Notes under the pieces: model-generated
Databases searched by the model: none
What the model was told of the DNA's origin: nothing
The model's input: only the letters and a program-made list of their open reading frames with translations
Assembly: GCA_016214555.1 (NCBI GenBank)
Contig: JACROF010000012.1
Location: forward strand, 203,485-267,484
Source of the DNA: Candidatus Levyibacteriota bacterium
GTDB lineage: Bacteria; Patescibacteriota; Microgenomatia; Levybacterales; UBA12049
Length of the DNA stretch: 64,000 nt
Reading direction: 5' to 3'
In this document: piece after piece, positions 13,344-18,016 of the stretch
Numbering within the stretch: position 1 is the first letter of the stretch
How the letters are laid out: each line of letters opens with the position of its first letter
Program-made: the position numbers and the translations under genes

Positions 13344-13649
13344 TTATTTTTTTCTCATCCCAAACGTGTTTGCTAGGTTTTCAGCAAGCGTTGCCCAGAA
13401 GTAGAAATACTTCATGGCTCGGTGGAGTTCACTATATGCTCCGGTAAGTTCATCACTTGCCCACATTTGTGGAGCACATGCGCGACAAGGCGAGTTTGCA
13501 GCCTGCTTTTTTGCTCGGTTGATGTCGTAGTCACTCATGCCTGCAGGCGGATAAACTGTATAAGCATGAGGGTATGGACATTTGAATCCGAGTTCGATAG
13601 GCTTTCCTACTAGCCTCATTATGCTTAGGATTTTCCACAATGTCTCCAT
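13344..13649 (-). CDS. Hypothetical Cys-containing protein (101 aa)
   Basis: AGGAGG ~6 nt upstream of the ATG at 13649. CPYPH...SPCRACAP cysteine cluster. No family recognised. Confidence 0.45.
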   Translation of the reverse strand: METLWKILSIMRLVGKPIELGFKCPYPHAYTVYPPAGMSDYDINRAKKQAANSPCRACAPQMWASDELTGAYSELHRAMKYFYFWATLAENLANTFGMRKK

Positions 13650-13798
13650 GAGTTACCTCCTTGAGAGCTTACTAAAAGTGCGAAGACGTCCTGAGACGTC
13701 AAGAGTGATATTTTACCTCAAAATTATCTTAAAATCAAGCTATAGGACTAGTTATTTATGGATTTCTTCACATTTTAACGATGTGATATAGTACATTC

Positions 13799-14137
13799 AT
13801 GGAAGATGAGATTAATGAGAAGAGTCCAAAATCTTCTCCACCTCCTGCGCAAGCAGATATGACGCTTCAGAAAGCTGTCGATTTTGGGGAATATCATCCT
13901 GATTTCTTGGCACAATTCCCACAGTGGCATACGCTTAGCCGTCATATCCAATTTGAGTACATCAGAAAGGCCATAGAAAATCGTAATAGGCAGCTTCTTA
14001 GGCAGTGGGCAGAGATCACCAATATCCTAGATTTCCGTCTCAAGCCACACCTTAATGATGCTTTGAGAAATATAGAAGAGCAGCTCGAAGTCCTCAAGCA
14101 AGATAAAGAAGATTTGTACGTCGAATACTCCTCCTGA
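13799..14137 (+). CDS. Hypothetical protein (112 aa)
   Basis: Complete ORF in intergenic context; no recognisable family. Confidence 0.35.
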   Translation: MEDEINEKSPKSSPPPAQADMTLQKAVDFGEYHPDFLAQFPQWHTLSRHIQFEYIRKAIENRNRQLLRQWAEITNILDFRLKPHLNDALRNIEEQLEVLKQDKEDLYVEYSS

Positions 14138-14240
14138 TGCATCAGCATCTTGAAATTATTTCATGGATCTCAAATTGGTAACTCTAGAATTGATAGTGGT
14201 CAGAATCGCGGTGGAAAAAATTGAGTTTTGAATGTCCGGC

Positions 14241-14268
14241 TCCCTGTAAGGGGGAGCCGGATCTTTGC
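14241..14268 (-). terminator. GC-rich hairpin (CCGGCTCCC-TGTAA-GGGGGAGCCGG) downstream of the LPXTG gene
   Basis: 11-bp GC stem immediately after the minus-strand stop at 14270. A T-tract follows on the minus strand only after ~15 nt, so termination is plausible but not canonical. Confidence 0.35.
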
Positions 14269-14269
14269 C

Positions 14270-14947
14270 TCAGGTCGTGCGATGGCTGTACCGGATGGTA
14301 CAACCAATGCAGCTGAGTGCAGTTGCAATCATGGCCACGAAGGCCAAAGCATTGTCGTGTTGAATGGTTCCGGACCCTGTGTTGGGCAAGATCATGACGT
14401 CCGTGGTCGACTCGCTTCCGTTGCCGGTGATGATGACTTCGGAGTCGCCAGTGTCTTCATCGCTGAAGACCTGGCAGATTTCGGTATCCAGACCCGAAGA
14501 ATCGGGCTTAATCAGAATTTCGCCCTCGGCGCAGTTCCCATACTCGTCCGGCAAGCGGTAGTACTCCTGCCACAGAGAGCATTCGTAGCCGTCCAACCAG
14601 CTAGGGCAATACCCACGTGGGCCTTCGCGCCAGGGCTGGTGACCACCCGTTGAGGGCTCATCATCGTAGACGCAAGCTTCGTACGTATAGTCGAAGCTGG
14701 TATTTGGCGGGCACTCGAAGAGGTAGCCATATTCAACCACCCCCTCAACTCCTGCTACAAAACAACCCGTATACCCATCGACGAACTCATCTGCGGGAAC
14801 CTCCCACAGGATGCCGTCAACAATATCGCAGGCCGATACCAATGGTGGGTAAAAAAGTCCTTCTTGGGCTTGCACCCACGAAATACCGGCCAGGCCGGTT
14901 GTCACGAGAAGTGCGACCAAAAAAACCACCAAGCGTAGACAACGCAT
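14270..14947 (-). CDS. Secreted Cys-rich cell-wall-anchored protein with C-terminal LPXTG (LPNTG) sortase sorting signal; compositionally GC-rich, probably horizontally acquired
   Basis: Start at the internal Met (MRCLRLVVFLVALLVTTGLAGISWVQAQ, a clear signal peptide) is preceded by GGGAGG. The C-terminus has LPNTGS, a hydrophobic stretch (ALAFVAMIATALSCIGC) and a basic tail (RYSHR): a classic sortase signal. The region is markedly GC-rich against an AT-rich background, so all six frames are open there. Confidence 0.65.
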   Translation of the reverse strand: MRCLRLVVFLVALLVTTGLAGISWVQAQEGLFYPPLVSACDIVDGILWEVPADEFVDGYTGCFVAGVEGVVEYGYLFECPPNTSFDYTYEACVYDDEPSTGGHQPWREGPRGYCPSWLDGYECSLWQEYYRLPDEYGNCAEGEILIKPDSSGLDTEICQVFSDEDTGDSEVIITGNGSESTTDVMILPNTGSGTIQHDNALAFVAMIATALSCIGCTIRYSHRTT

Positions 14948-15183
14948 GATATAACCTCCCGAACCGAGGATCAAAAACGGAACACCCGTCCATTCACCAC
15001 GGTTCTCTGAAGCTAAAACTACTTATCTTCAAAAAACCGTGGAGAAAGCCATCTTTTAAAAGATCACGTATATATTTGCAGAAAATGGCCACAAAATCAA
15101 CGCTATAGGCCAATATTTGGAAGAGTTCTGGAATAACTAAAAATTGTATTTTAGCTTCCTTTACGTTAAAATATGAGTCTTAA

Positions 15184-15252
15184 GGCCCCATCGTTCCCGA
15201 TGATCGATGTCATCGGGATCCCGACGGAGTATCGTCGGGGCTAGTGGTTTAG
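15184..15252 (+). pseudogene. Partial duplicate of tRNA-Glu 5' end (first ~23 nt) interrupted by a 46-nt insert carrying two GC-rich hairpins
   Basis: GGCCCCATCGT (15184-15194) and CTAGTGGTTTAG (15241-15252) match tRNA-Glu positions 1-11 and 12-23. Between them lie CCCGATGA-tcgatg-TCATCGGG and CCCGACGG-agtat-CGTCGGG hairpins. Sits immediately upstream of the GIY-YIG ORF. Confidence 0.55.
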
Positions 15253-15256
15253 TAAA

Positions 15257-15514
15257 ATGAGTTTTATGACTTACATTTTACAAAGTGATAAGGATGGAAG
15301 TTATTATATTGGCAGTACCGATAATCTTCAGAAAAGATTAACGGCACATAATAAAGGGTATTCAAAGTACACAAAAAATAAAATTCCTTGGAATATTGTA
15401 TATAAAGAGGAATATGAGACGCTCTCTGGAGCAAGAAAAAGAGAATATTATCTAAAGTCTCTTAAGAGTAAAATTGCAATTTTAAAATTGATCAAACAAG
15501 GCCCCATCGTCTAG
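15257..15514 (+). CDS. GIY-YIG nuclease-domain protein (small URI-domain, COG2827-like), stop codon embedded in tRNA-Glu
   Basis: TYILQSDKDGSYYIGSTDNLQKRLTAHNKG...WNIVYKEEYETLSGARKREYYLKSLK contains the GIY-x10-YIG motifs plus the conserved Arg, His, Glu and Asn/Lys positions. The last 5 codons plus the TAG stop lie inside the first 14 nt of tRNA-Glu. Confidence 0.8.
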   Translation: MSFMTYILQSDKDGSYYIGSTDNLQKRLTAHNKGYSKYTKNKIPWNIVYKEEYETLSGARKREYYLKSLKSKIAILKLIKQGPIV

Positions 15515-15571
15515 TGGTTAGGACACTGGATTCTCATTCCAGTAACCGGGATTCGACTTCCCGTGGGGTCA
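15500..15571 (+). tRNA. tRNA-Glu (anticodon CUC)
   Basis: Acceptor GGCCCCA/TGGGGTC, D-arm GTC-TAGTGGTTAG-GAC, anticodon stem CTGGA/TCCAG with loop TTCTCAT (U33, CUC, A37), T-arm CGGGA-TTCGACT-TCCCG, discriminator A. No encoded CCA. Confidence 0.8.
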
Positions 15572-15973
15572 CTGAGTAACAATTATTTTTTGAACTCTCT
15601 TCTTGATCATATCGCGTATAACGCGAAAATTTTCGATACTACCATCGAAGGGATCTTTTACATTCCAGTAAGTAACTTTTGTGCTTCGCATTACAAATTC
15701 TGGGATCTTTTCTTCAGGACACAGAACATAAATTTGATCTGCATCATCAACCATTTCTTTGGTAACTGTCTTTACTTTCTTATGTGAAACATCAATTCCT
15801 TCCTCCTTCATAACAGTAATGACTGCAGGAATAGGATGACCATATTTAGCTGGGGTGAAATCTAAAACTCCAGCACTTGTCGCATTTGATGCATGTGTAA
15901 AAAAATTATAGTATGCTTCTGCCATCTGACTTCTAGCTACATTTCCAGCACAAATAAATAATAACTTCTTCAT
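15569..15973 (-). CDS. Low-molecular-weight protein-tyrosine phosphatase / ArsC-like (LMW-PTP family)
   Basis: MKKLLFICAGNVARSQMAEA is the CX5R(S/T) P-loop of LMW-PTPs; a DP motif (VKDPFDG) lies near the C-terminus. The Met giving the canonical N-terminus was chosen; the ORF track extends to 16003. Confidence 0.75.
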   Translation of the reverse strand: MKKLLFICAGNVARSQMAEAYYNFFTHASNATSAGVLDFTPAKYGHPIPAVITVMKEEGIDVSHKKVKTVTKEMVDDADQIYVLCPEEKIPEFVMRSTKVTYWNVKDPFDGSIENFRVIRDMIKKRVQKIIVTQ

Positions 15974-16069
15974 AAGCCGATTATACACAATTTCGCATAT
16001 CAACCTGGATCACTCTTGGACAGATTCATTGGCCGAAAGCATTGCTGTAGCATACTTGGCATTTTCGCC

Positions 16070-16777: not shown

Positions 16778-17242
16778 TTAGTGGTGGTACTTGTGAACTA
16801 CTGCGTGCCCTTTGCCTTTTTTAATCAAATACATATTCACAGGATACGCTGACCAGAATGCTACAAAAAGTGAAGTAGCGAGGCTTCCCCAGAAGAGGAG
16901 AGAGATGAGAGGTGCGTCCATTGCTCCAGGAATAATAAGCATAATAAGGTTGTCCATTATTTCCATAACTGTTATCGATACCGTATCAGCAGCAAAGGCA
17001 AGAGGAAGTGCTTTGGCGAAAGACAATCCATGTTTTATCAACGAAAAAAGACTAAAAGAGTATCCAAATATAAACGCTAACACAACAGAGAAAATAACTG
17101 CACCTAGGTTATGGATATTGAAATAGTTTCCAATAACCATTCCTAATATTTCTCCAACTGCACAACCAGTGAGGCAGTGCATCGTTGCGCTAAAAGCAAC
17201 CTTTTTAATGCTAGCGTGAGACTGATGATGATTAGTTGTCAT
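16778..17242 (-). CDS. DUF4396-family membrane protein (Cys-x-x-Gly-Cys, metal-homeostasis associated)
   Basis: MHCLTGCAVGE motif and ~4 TM helices. AAGGAG 7 nt upstream of the ATG. Last gene of the csoR operon, overlapping the DUF305 gene by 11 nt. Confidence 0.55.
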   Translation of the reverse strand: MTTNHHQSHASIKKVAFSATMHCLTGCAVGEILGMVIGNYFNIHNLGAVIFSVVLAFIFGYSFSLFSLIKHGLSFAKALPLAFAADTVSITVMEIMDNLIMLIIPGAMDAPLISLLFWGSLATSLFVAFWSAYPVNMYLIKKGKGHAVVHKYHH

Positions 17243-17681
17243 AACCCCACTCCTTTTGCCATTTTTTCATCATATCAATCTCATTTGTTTGAGCTGAGAT
17301 GATATCATCAGCCATTGACCTTATCTCATCATGCTTCGCACTTTTTTTTGCGAGATTAGCCATGTCAATTGCTCCTTGGTGATGCTCAATCATCTCGGAA
17401 ATAAATAGCTTGTCAAAGTCATCCCCTGTTTTTCTCTCAAGGTCTTCAACCATATCTTCCATTGTCATCCCGTGCATGTTGCTCATCATCGAACCATCAG
17501 ACATCATATGTTCATTATTTTTTTCGTTGCTACTTGTTTTTTGTATGATAGCAGTATTCATTCCCATCATCTTCATCATACTTGTATTATTAGAATTAAC
17601 AATATTTGTTGTAATCAGAGATGTAATTACAATTCCAATTATTAGTCCTATTGCTCCATATAGTAATTCTTTTTGCTGCAT
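17232..17681 (-). CDS. DUF305-family protein with Met-rich (MxxM) N-terminal region, predicted copper/metal-binding periplasmic protein
   Basis: FISEMIEHHQGAIDMANLA ... AQTNEIDMMKKW matches the DUF305 ferritin-like repeat. Met-rich segment MMKMMGM...HMMSDGSMMSNMHGMTMEDM. Start set at the Met preceded by AGGAGGAGG (ORF track 17690 would be GTG). Confidence 0.6.
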   Translation of the reverse strand: MQQKELLYGAIGLIIGIVITSLITTNIVNSNNTSMMKMMGMNTAIIQKTSSNEKNNEHMMSDGSMMSNMHGMTMEDMVEDLERKTGDDFDKLFISEMIEHHQGAIDMANLAKKSAKHDEIRSMADDIISAQTNEIDMMKKWQKEWGYDN

Positions 17682-17697
17682 ACGTATCACCTCCTCC

Positions 17698-17970
17698 TTA
17701 TTTTGTTTTTTTAAAAACAGTCATAATTTCAGCAATTGATTCATCTGCTTGCCCTTTTTTAATTGCGTCAGAAACGCATCCTCTGAGATGGTTTTCAAGT
17801 AAAAGATTTCCAGTCTGCTTAAGTCCAGATTCAACAGCCTGCATTTGGTGCATGATATCAATACAATAAGAGTCCGACTCAACCATCGAAATAATTTTTT
17901 CTAAGTGTCCGCGAGCAATCTTTAGTCTGTGAAGTATTCTTTCGTCTGTATTTTTTGGTCTGTACGACAT
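17698..17970 (-). CDS. csoR: CsoR/RcnR-family metal-sensing transcriptional repressor
   Basis: RLKIARGHLEKIISMVE....CIDIMHQMQAVESGL....LLENHLRGC carries the conserved Cys/His/Cys ligand positions of CsoR. Start taken at the Met just downstream of the promoter/operator (ORF track 18000). Confidence 0.75.
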   Translation of the reverse strand: MSYRPKNTDERILHRLKIARGHLEKIISMVESDSYCIDIMHQMQAVESGLKQTGNLLLENHLRGCVSDAIKKGQADESIAEIMTVFKKTK

Positions 17971-18016
17971 ATCCCCTCTAGAGGGATATAATATCGTCAA
18001 AAAGTAATCGTGTCAA
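17971..18016 (-). promoter_or_regulatory. csoR operon promoter (TTGACA-17-TATTAT) with adjacent palindromic candidate operator ATCCCCTCTAGAGGGAT
   Basis: Minus-strand TTGACA at 18011-18016 and TATTAT at 17988-17993 with a 17-nt spacer. The GC-rich inverted repeat CCCT-CTAG-AGGG (17972-17987) lies between the -10 and the ATG, resembling CsoR-type ATACCC/GGGTAT-like operators. Confidence 0.5.

Follow-up and report, generated by a model that had tools for sequence, protein, structure and literature searches.

The closest described systems are the LPXTG (sortase A-type) substrates of Gram-positive bacteria, which share with the protein described here a signal peptide and an LPXTG motif that is preceded by an acidic stalk of low complexity and followed by a hydrophobic stretch with a basic tail; sortase genes near the homologues are a further point in common. 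Among LPXTG-anchored proteins, in the streptococcal M proteins the distal N-terminus is hypervariable and the part near the wall conserved, and their genes occupy a fixed locus at which the alleles are sharply different among strains and segments have been recombined. The likeness would extend to the anchor, the variable distal end, the fixed locus and the shuffled segments. However, the modules found here would be disulfide-stabilised mini-domains instead of a coiled coil, and the block that is replaced between alleles takes in the −10 box and the 5′ leader together with the signal peptide. The present protein also differs from the Gram-positive LPXTG proteins in that its host is a member of the CPR (Microgenomates), in that it matches neither Pfam PF00746 Gram_pos_anchor (E ≤ 1) nor the NCBIfam LPXTG anchor TIGR01167 (E ≤ 10), and in that its ectodomain of ~160 aa with 8 Cys is unrelated to known adhesin folds.

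Within the CPR, the families connected with the cell surface by Meheust et al. (2019) include a sortase (fam000526) and an MdbA-like oxidoreductase together with VKOR, that is, the machinery that such a protein would need; that work covers enzymes, unlike the substrate family presented here. CPR bacteria possess MdbA-like/VKOR disulfide machinery, and in Microgenomates a sortase is reported to be near ubiquitous (PMC6744442).

We consider it likely, on the whole of the evidence set out below, that the locus encodes a small wall-anchored surface protein of Levybacteria (Microgenomates, CPR) with an exchangeable outer module, carried by a self-contained gene unit in which a dedicated promoter and a conserved leader precede the coding sequence and a 3′ hairpin follows it.

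The gene and the encoded protein

In a sequence-only reading of the window (the whole 64-kb stretch of DNA analysed), a GC-rich islet had been described in AT-rich DNA, and this description holds: over 14201–15000 the GC content is 0.50–0.60 per 100 nt vs 0.36 for the window, and the islet constitutes the window's top 700-nt GC value, ~4 SD above the mean. The minus strand, which had been named as that of the real gene, contains a reading frame (14947–14270) with an ATG start and GGAGG ahead of it; the coding sequence of 225 aa plus the TGA stop occupies 14270..14947 (−) and corresponds to MBI5045116.1 (HZC02_04260) of a Candidatus Levybacteria MAG. Its GC content is 55% and its GC3 63%, as against 36% GC for the window and a GC3 of 0.22–0.47 in the other 54 ORFs of ≥90 aa. 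With respect to the homologue at locus L001, the differences are distributed over the codon positions as 70/60/101, with the third position leading, which fits the annotated frame. The claim that all six frames are open had to be given up: between 14200 and 15000 the frames contain 9, 3, 11, 7, 10 and 1 stops, so that the islet is depleted in stops relative to the whole window (mean of 14.7 per 801 nt) and the coding frame is the only one open throughout. A GIY-YIG gene (15257–15514) and a tRNA-Glu (15500–15572) adjoin the gene, as had been noted.

The GC-rich islands of AT-rich genomes often prove to be structured RNAs, and this, together with the depletion of stop codons in every frame, could suggest that the stretch is a structured non-coding RNA whose ORF arises merely from the scarcity of stops in GC-rich DNA. 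This has next to no probability, firstly, because protein homologues down to ~30% identity keep the Cys framework, the signal peptide and the LPxTG, and also because third-position changes dominate between this gene and L001, a ribosome-binding site is present and no Rfam match exists; in practice, the family alignment can be regarded as having already refuted it.

The coding sequence belongs to a family of ~11 members among roughly 15 billion proteins, a rarity that limits any general importance. All of them have a signal peptide, an LPxTG, a hydrophobic stretch, a basic tail and an invariant core of the form GH..WR...RG.C...C..WQ...C...CQ, with G102, H103, W106, R107, R111, G112, C114, C123, W126 and Q127 invariant in 11 sequences. 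In the window protein, the signal peptide that had been proposed can be recognized by inspection of the sequence (N-terminus MRCLR, a hydrophobic run of 17–20 residues and VQA|QE); it is a predicted Sec signal peptide of aa 1–27, cleaved after VQA (14867..14947, −), and inspection reveals the same layout in all full-length family members. A variable N-terminal 4-Cys module of type A follows (aa 28–97; 14657..14866, −), and then the conserved 4-Cys core domain (aa 98–163; 14459..14656, −), with GGHQPWREGxRGxC...C.LWQ...C...CQ, and an acidic Ser/Thr/Gly-rich stalk (aa 164–186; 14390..14458, −), which differs in both length and sequence between family members. The estimate of about 17 Cys in the mature part was too high, the total being 11, of which the ectodomain has 8 (positions 40, 62, 79, 92, 114, 123, 139 and 158), the C-terminal hydrophobic stretch 2 and the signal peptide 1.

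The C-terminal sorting signal (14273..14389, −) is present as had been read, with LPNTG at aa 187–191 (14375–14389), an 8-aa spacer (SGTIQHDN), a 19-aa hydrophobic stretch (ALAFVAMIATALSCIGCTI) and the tail RYSHRTT. Only this one of the 55 window ORFs of ≥90 aa has an LPxT[GAS] within its last 60 residues. Across the family, L187, P188, T190 and G191 are invariant (11/11 aligned members, at an overall identity of ~30%), the versions being LPNTG, LPRTG, LPDTG, LPSTG and LPETG, and the residues that flank the motif and those of the hydrophobic segment vary freely. The C-termini of other members have sub-threshold matches to GVDTG_CTERM (18.3 vs 29 bits) and to the SpaH/EbpB pilin C-terminus (E = 0.015). 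A sortase-assembled pilin subunit was considered and rejected, as there is a single Lys (K147), which is unconserved in the family alignment, and no adjacent sortase.

The proposal that the protein is a sortase substrate is supported. In its favor are the invariance of the LPxTG and the sortase genes (PF04203) located 4–7 kb from distant homologues at L011, L012, L014 and L017; against it, the 64-kb window has no sortase, either as a TLxTC ORF or by tblastn with two CPR sortases (E > 1), and the 10 kb to the right of the window contain only glycosyltransferases and no sortase. The C-terminal hydrophobic segment might anchor the protein in the membrane by itself, without sortase processing of the LPNTG, and the 74 kb examined without a sortase and the absence of matches to the anchor HMMs speak for it; nevertheless, it is quite unlikely, given that L, P, T and G remain fixed in 11/11 members while their surroundings vary, that sortase genes lie near homologues, and that a sortase is reported as nearly universal in Microgenomates (PMC6744442). 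The protein is probably a small disulfide-stabilised surface protein anchored to the cell wall via sortase.

What the sequences themselves show is the gene, its sorting-signal motifs with their conservation, the mosaicism with its breakpoints, the GC excess throughout the family and the conserved promoter motif and leader; export, disulfides, anchoring by sortase and a binding target are inferred. The proposed pathway would run as follows: (i) Sec would export the protein, and signal peptidase would cleave it after VQA27; (ii) the two small 4-Cys modules would fold with the support of disulfides; (iii) and finally, sortase would cleave between the T and the G of LPNTG and join the protein to the cell wall, where it would be raised on its acidic stalk.

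Scans of the protein and its family against Pfam, NCBIfam and PHROGs assigned no family and gave only sub-threshold matches (CBM14, SH3_3, EntA-like and GVDTG_CTERM). PDB sequence-profile searches returned only LYPD6, at E = 0.41, taken as a chance match, and a profile search of a word-indexed database with a 72-residue core alignment found nothing. AF2 reached a pLDDT of 39 from a 2-sequence alignment; from 10 sequences its model is confident for aa 104–163 alone (pLDDT 76–91) and mostly of low confidence beyond. The segment aa 75–97 resembles CBM14/peritrophin-A in its CP-x-x-x-F-D-x5-C hairpin motif, and similar CPxG...C motifs recur in other members. Membership of that family was rejected, as PF01607 gives 17.4 bits vs a cutoff of 22.1 (E = 0.0049) and the match is partial (profile positions 27–49, 23 of 53) and occurs in 1/11 members; the likeness may serve as a lead. 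The substrate family was found in none of the libraries and nowhere in the literature searched.

Mosaic alleles and the origin of the GC excess

In the conspecific contigs L002 and L018 the flanks are 94–100% identical, while identity falls to 56–65% in the block that starts at the −35 box and runs as far as the GGHQPWR codons. Similar discontinuities are found between proteins: P0002 and P0003 share 85% identity over the C module and 27% over the N module, and P0010 and the L002 protein 98% and 59%, respectively. The type-A N module of the window is 69% identical to that of P0002, and 24–30% identical to the type-B modules of L002, P0003, P0010 and P0008, with the Cys framework kept. In other words, N- and C-terminal modules occur in shuffled pairings across the family, and the alleles are mosaics with sharp recombination breakpoints, which shows, at the level of sequence comparison, that gene segments have been exchanged between lineages.

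Homologous recombination would swap the distal N module between strains, with at least two very divergent module types in circulation, one crossover falling in the −35 region of the promoter and a second in the conserved codons for GGHQPWR; the conserved core domain would sit wall-proximal and the N module distal. Such an arrangement agrees with a surface protein that is pressed to diversify, for instance by its encounters with host cells, partners or phages, with the diversifying selection deduced from a handful of alleles.

Diversity-generating retroelements are common in CPR, and the variation is sharply localised, so a retroelement or another targeted mutator could be imagined to have made the variable block without recombination. 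We regard this as very improbable, because within the window no stretch of the gene is repeated as a template would be, because the block holds indels and extends over the −10 box, the leader and the signal peptide, and because the same N-module types recur with other C modules in other lineages. The 64-kb window likewise contains no second copy of the family, nor a superoxide dismutase.

The compositional anomaly had been attributed to horizontal acquisition. As a recent event this is not supported, since a related species (L002) carries the gene at the corresponding Lon-...-tRNA-Glu locus. The flanks of L002 and L018 are ~82% identical (DNA) to the window, and at 8/8 homologue loci examined the gene is richer in GC (0.52–0.62) than its flanks (0.40–0.48), which makes the anomaly a property of the family. 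At host codon usage, MBI5045116.1 would be expected to have a GC content of 0.43–0.45 and a GC3 of 0.28–0.31, and 0.55 and 0.63 are observed.

An import from a GC-richer donor beside the tRNA gene, still drifting towards the composition of the host, would account for a GC3 of 0.63 vs ~0.3 in the host, where codon choice supplies half of the GC excess; a tRNA-Glu lies 550 nt away with a mobile GIY-YIG gene in between, and the gene unit occurs in no fewer than three distinct genomic surroundings. This is, however, unlikely. The locus is shared with L002 and L018, a synteny that weakens such a reading, and the GIY-YIG gene is absent from it there, which makes that gene an independent insertion; none of the family members encountered has a host that matches the GC richness of the gene itself, and no integrase was seen beside the gene. 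Moreover, the 4-fold sites are near saturation (JC distance 0.85), and yet GC3 is 0.5–0.6 in all alleles. A recent import is thus not supported, and the GC-rich composition travels with the gene family.

What maintains it could be sought in the dynamics of the locus, that is, in frequent recombination at the mosaic gene, with GC-biased gene conversion or continuing exchange with a shared GC-richer allele pool holding GC3 high in AT-rich hosts. In bacteria, a link between recombination and GC is established, and the mosaic alleles with their sharp breakpoints, as well as the GC excess at every locus despite saturated synonymous divergence, would agree with it. Nonetheless, GC3 is lowest in the most variable N module (0.44–0.48, codons 26–75) and highest in the conserved C half (0.64–0.76), the reverse of the simplest prediction, and we hold this explanation as rather unlikely.

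Promoter, leader and 3′ hairpin

The preferred reading, of a self-contained unit, takes in the regions on both sides of the coding sequence. Upstream, alignment delimits a predicted sigma-70-type promoter (15072..15100, −), with TTGATT at 15100–15095, a 17-nt spacer and AAATAT at 15077–15072, in the place of which the homologues have TTGATT/TTGAAA-17-TACAAT/TAGAAT; a consensus promoter scan did not report the site at 15072..15100. The −35 box is overlapped by a family-specific promoter-proximal motif, CCTATAGCGTTGA (15097..15109, −), of the general form CCTATAG-TTGA. A single match to the pattern C[CT]ATAG-N2-TTGA is present in the 64-kb window, where chance alone would give 0.38, and at loci L001, L002, L006, L007, L011 and L017 the motif (spacer N2–4) is found only upstream of family genes, the truncated paralogue in L017 being also preceded by it. 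Transcription would start near 15065.

Comparison with homologous loci reveals a conserved 5′ leader of ~115 nt (14948..15065, −), ~93% identical between the window and L001, where the 4-fold sites of the adjacent coding sequence differ by 51% (JC distance 0.85). Its core, AACCGTGGTGAATGGACGGG, is identical in 5/5 alleles and is kept even within the replaced block, in which L002 and L018 are elsewhere 56–65% identical. Searches with the leader yielded one real match in the genome collection (L002), one real match, identical to L001, and one chance match in the metagenome collection, and a chance match alone in the viral collection.

The predicted folding of the full leader has −45.6 kcal/mol (z = −4.2). 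A small hairpin or palindrome, ATCTTTTAAAAGAT (15051..15064, −), occupies the 5′ end predicted for the transcript, and its arms ATCTT/AAGAT are retained in L001, L006 and L018, with a different loop. It is followed by a long imperfect hairpin (14993..15046, −), with the lower stem CCACGGUU/AACCGUGG. Where its arms mismatch, the sense strand alone allows G-U pairing; nothing varies in the lower stem, and the upper one combines 1 compensatory pair with several that are broken, the RNAalifold covariation term of +1.8 giving no covariation support. Then comes a short hairpin, GGACGG-N5-(U)CCGU (14975..14991, −), which alignment finds in 5/5 leaders; its loop varies, and in one instance G-C replaces G-U. 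The U-run being absent from L002 and L018, it is no conserved intrinsic terminator. The Shine-Dalgarno GGAGG (14955..14959, −) lies 7 nt ahead of the ATG.

Several functions for the leader were considered and either rejected or found to lack support. Firstly, a riboswitch or attenuator, because the U-run is unconserved, there is no RNAalifold covariation and Rfam offers no match (Rfam 15 returned nothing relevant at E ≤ 10 over 13500–16000, and nothing reached the gathering score in the window plus six loci); secondly, a hairpin sequestering the Shine-Dalgarno, whose stability is no greater than that of shuffled sequences; thirdly, a uORF or an N-terminal extension starting from the conserved AUG of GAAUGGACGGG, because the frame of this AUG relative to the main ORF shifts among loci and the fourth codon is variable at all positions; and finally, the long hairpin as an integron attC, because inspection finds no R′/R″ consensus.

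Downstream, the GC-rich hairpin that had been seen after the gene lies 12 nt past the stop and has a 10-bp stem, −24.4 kcal/mol and z = −5.0. The hairpin (14235..14261, −) is a putative terminator without an adjacent U-tract, which is why a terminator scan made no call at 14235–14261, and L002, L001, L006 and L017 have counterpart hairpins with other stem sequences.

A candidate contact protein

A life in attachment to other cells is commonly assumed for CPR bacteria, and to our knowledge few CPR surface proteins have been linked to cell contact. The predicted anchor, the conserved inner domain, which has no match in PDB, Pfam or NCBIfam, and the outer module that differs sharply among otherwise nearly identical strains make the product of this gene a candidate contact or recognition protein, or a phage target. 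A further step, rather unlikely and proposed only tentatively, would be to see in the unit a strain-specific recognition cassette of CPR episymbionts, with a wall-anchored protein of two modules whose distal module would pick the surface of a host or partner, or a phage. If so, the distal module would be exchanged as a block with its own promoter and leader, a regulator site that has so far escaped description (CCTATAG-TTGA) would govern its expression together with a cis-regulatory leader of a new kind, and the same recombination that shuffles the unit would maintain its GC richness.

A more general lesson is that a GC-rich islet within an AT-rich genome need not signal a recent import. As for Levybacteria, the gene would not represent a new kind of system, but a candidate for the proteins through which these cells may make contact with others.

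Gene, composition and product

The segment 14201-15000 is the GC maximum of the window (0.50-0.60 per 100 nt), with a best 700-nt value of 0.554 against a window mean of 0.361 (SD 0.047), and the GC-rich islet described in the sequence-only reading is thus present. The same reading placed the gene on the minus strand, rightly, as this is the sole frame that runs through the segment without stops (ATG 14947, TGA 14272-14270, 225 aa, with GGAGG 7 nt 5′ of the ATG); its view that all six frames are open there has to be abandoned, given that the others hold 9, 3, 11, 7 and 10 stops, which are scarcer than the window mean of 14.7 per 801 nt. Codon usage also sets the gene apart, with a GC3 of 0.63 against 0.22-0.47 in the remaining 54 ORFs of 90 aa or more. 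Host codon usage on the same amino acids would give a GC of 0.43-0.45 and a GC3 of 0.28-0.31, and therefore about half of the GC excess comes from amino-acid content and about half from codon choice. The GC-rich hairpin 3′ of the stop is likewise found (14235-14261, 10 bp, -24.4 kcal/mol, z = -5.0), and was left uncalled by the terminator scan because it has no directly adjacent U-tract.

The product is a 100% match to GenBank MBI5045116.1 ('MAG: hypothetical protein HZC02_04260 [Candidatus Levybacteria bacterium]'; Patescibacteria group, Microgenomates group), encoded on a 299,555-bp contig. Its N-terminus resembles a signal peptide, as had been suggested (MRCLR, a hydrophobic run, VQA|QE), and in its sorting signal LPNTG (aa 187-191) is separated by 8 residues from a 19-residue hydrophobic stretch, after which comes the tail RYSHRTT; the cysteines, previously put at about 17, number 11, eight of them within the ectodomain. 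With 1 Lys in 225 residues and some 15% Asp plus Glu, the protein has a makeup that is unusual in AT-rich genomes. At aa 79-92, the hairpin motif CP-x3-F-D-x5-C is responsible for a CBM14 match below threshold, and similar CPxG...C motifs are found again in other family members.

The family and its anchoring

Relatives were sought among 5.8 billion proteins with a word index, among 1.84 billion cluster representatives with an exhaustive HMMER run, and in the genome collection with a leader-derived DNA pattern; in all, about 11 distinct ones came to light (the proteins P0002-P0008, P0010 and P0011, the gene of contig L002, and a truncated tandem paralogue in locus L017). All full-length members combine a signal peptide with a C-terminal LP[NRDSE]TG, a hydrophobic stretch and a basic tail. 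G102, H103, W106, R107, R111, G112, C114, C123, W126 and Q127 are invariant in the family, and C139, C158 and Q159 nearly so. The truncated paralogue (L017 11062-11551) comprises a signal peptide, a type-B N module (the distal, variable 4-Cys part) and the start of the core, without LPXTG; a separate copy of the promoter motif, CCTATAGTACTTGAC, precedes it.

There is good, if indirect, support for the prediction that these proteins would be sortase substrates: (i) no aligned member departs from L, P, T and G in the motif, although identity in the family is otherwise only about 30%; (ii) in four loci (L011, L012, L014, L017) a PF04203 sortase gene is found at a distance of 4-7 kb from the homologue; (iii) and finally, sortase is reported to be near ubiquitous in Microgenomates (Meheust et al. 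2019, PMC6744442). An MdbA-like/VKOR disulfide system is also reported in CPR (Meheust et al. 2019, PMC6744442). As to the window, no ORF contains TLxTC, tblastn with two CPR sortases gave E > 1 only, and the 10 kb to its right hold no sortase. A reading as a sortase-assembled pilin was rejected, as the family does not conserve the one Lys of the window protein.

An old locus with exchanged modules

The compositional anomaly had been taken as a sign of horizontal acquisition, and as a recent import this is not supported, with two observations against it. The first is that the GC excess is a trait of the family: its genes have a GC of 0.52-0.62 against 0.40-0.48 in the flanks, being GC-richer in 8/8 homologue loci examined, with the same contrast in the window (0.55 against 0.36), and among the homologue loci found no host matches the family gene in GC richness. 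The second is the same-locus gene in L002, a 5.6-kb contig with the order DUF1003, Lon, 99-aa gene, 122-aa gene, family gene and tRNA-Glu, which is syntenic with the window; the flanking DNA is about 82% identical, and the family gene shows 50-69% DNA and 43% protein identity. The family gene is therefore older than the split of these species. L002 (CAYWEJ010000034.1) is filed as an 'uncultured Gammaproteobacteria' MAG despite this Levybacteria synteny and the roughly 82% DNA identity (Lon, tRNA-Glu, others), and is probably mis-binned. The two small genes between Lon and the family gene (13344-13649 and 13799-14137; 101 and 112 aa) have no Pfam match and are kept in L002 and L018.

Within this locus, the segment-wise identities show module shuffling. 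P0002 and P0003 are 85% identical in the C module (the wall-proximal, conserved 4-Cys core), 65% in the tail and 27% in the N module; the window protein and P0002, 69% in the N module and 46% in the C module; for P0010 and the L002 protein the values are 98% (C module) and 59% (N module). L018, which carries P0010, is conspecific with L002 (flanks 94-100% identical), and identity between them falls to 56-65% across a block of about 450 bp, returning on one side at the TTGA/CTATAGG promoter motif and on the other at the TGGHQPW codons, so that the replaced block spans the -10 box, leader, signal peptide and N module. L001 and L006, similarly, have downstream flanks in common and different N modules. 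There is no second copy of the family gene within the window, and silent-cassette and retroelement mechanisms are thus not indicated.

The GIY-YIG gene and tRNA-Glu(CTC) adjoin the family gene, as had been stated. Within 15184-15572, the former (15257-15514) is an insertion that overlaps the intact tRNA-Glu(CTC) at its 3′ end, and it is preceded by a fragment copy of the tRNA-Glu 5′ end (GGCCCCATCGT...CTAGTGGTTT), split by a 46-nt insert at 15195-15240 composed of two short GC-rich hairpins (TCCCGATGA-TCGATG-TCATCGGGA and CCCGACG-GAGTAT-CGTCGGG). In L002 (5400-5568) and L018 (1-75) the tRNA lies directly beside the family-gene promoter with no GIY-YIG gene, and these are therefore empty sites.

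In the distant loci (L007, L011-L016, L017; spans include L007 10001-12171, L011 10001-11926 and L017 10001-12479), an Fe/Mn superoxide dismutase gene is directly downstream of the family gene and a DUF2298 membrane-protein gene usually upstream, with MsrA and MsrB close by in some (L011, L017). No superoxide dismutase was found in the window, and this neighbourhood, to which we give little weight, may be a matter of inherited gene order and not of function. The other window genes, which include enolase, BipA, Lon, a DEAH helicase, a CsoR/DUF305/DUF4396 cluster and a long membrane glycosyltransferase-like array, fit the Microgenomates lineage. The cluster (16778-18000, minus strand), in which the metal-sensing repressor is of the CsoR type (PF02583), has the look of a unit for copper or metal stress, and the interval 15569-16003 holds an LMW phosphatase/ArsC-like gene. 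The array (26218-62869 plus the 10 kb beyond, L020) is a large surface-glycosylation region of more than 45 kb with many paralogues, about 20 same-strand large membrane-protein genes (PMT_2, PTPS_related, YfhO, GT87) plus GT2 and GT4 glycosyltransferases, at a GC of 0.30-0.35, below the 0.38-0.44 of the first 26 kb.

Promoter, leader and nature of the protein

Each family gene carries, at -35, the motif C[CT]ATAG-N2-4-TTGA and, about 17 nt further on, a TAnAAT-like box; the 64-kb window has a single copy of the motif, where chance would predict 0.38, and the fetched loci have it at family genes only. The window, L001/L004, L002, L006 and L018 form a group, the window group, in which the promoter is followed 3′ by a leader of about 115 nt (14948-15065, minus strand, in the window). 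The window and L001 show about 93% identity in this leader, and 51% difference at the four-fold sites of the CDS next to it. The leader core AACCGTGGTGAATGGACGGG is identical in 5/5 alleles, even within the replaced block. In the predicted fold, a small hairpin at the 5′ end is followed by a long imperfect one and then by a short one (whole, -45.6 kcal/mol, z = -4.2); the long stem is not backed by covariation (one compensatory pair, several broken; covariation term +1.8), and an Rfam search of the leader gave no match. A helix sequestering the Shine-Dalgarno sequence was discarded, its stability being no better than that of shuffled sequences. The leaders of L007 (9860-10000), L011 (9860-10000) and L017 (9850-10000) are of a second conserved type, with a CAAAGG/CCUUUG-type hairpin directly after the -10 box, then GGAGGG-N8-14-CCCGC, and have no Rfam match at gathering score.

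In summary, the gene, the sorting signal and the compositional anomaly are all real, and two further features deserve notice, the GC excess common to the whole family and the shared promoter motif with its leader. The protein belongs to a known kind, the LPXTG surface proteins, and is best read as a surface protein, anchored by sortase and stabilised by disulfides, from a very small, uncharacterised family in CPR, with a distal module that is swapped between strains; from this layout, and only from it, we infer that it may act as an adhesin or in recognition.
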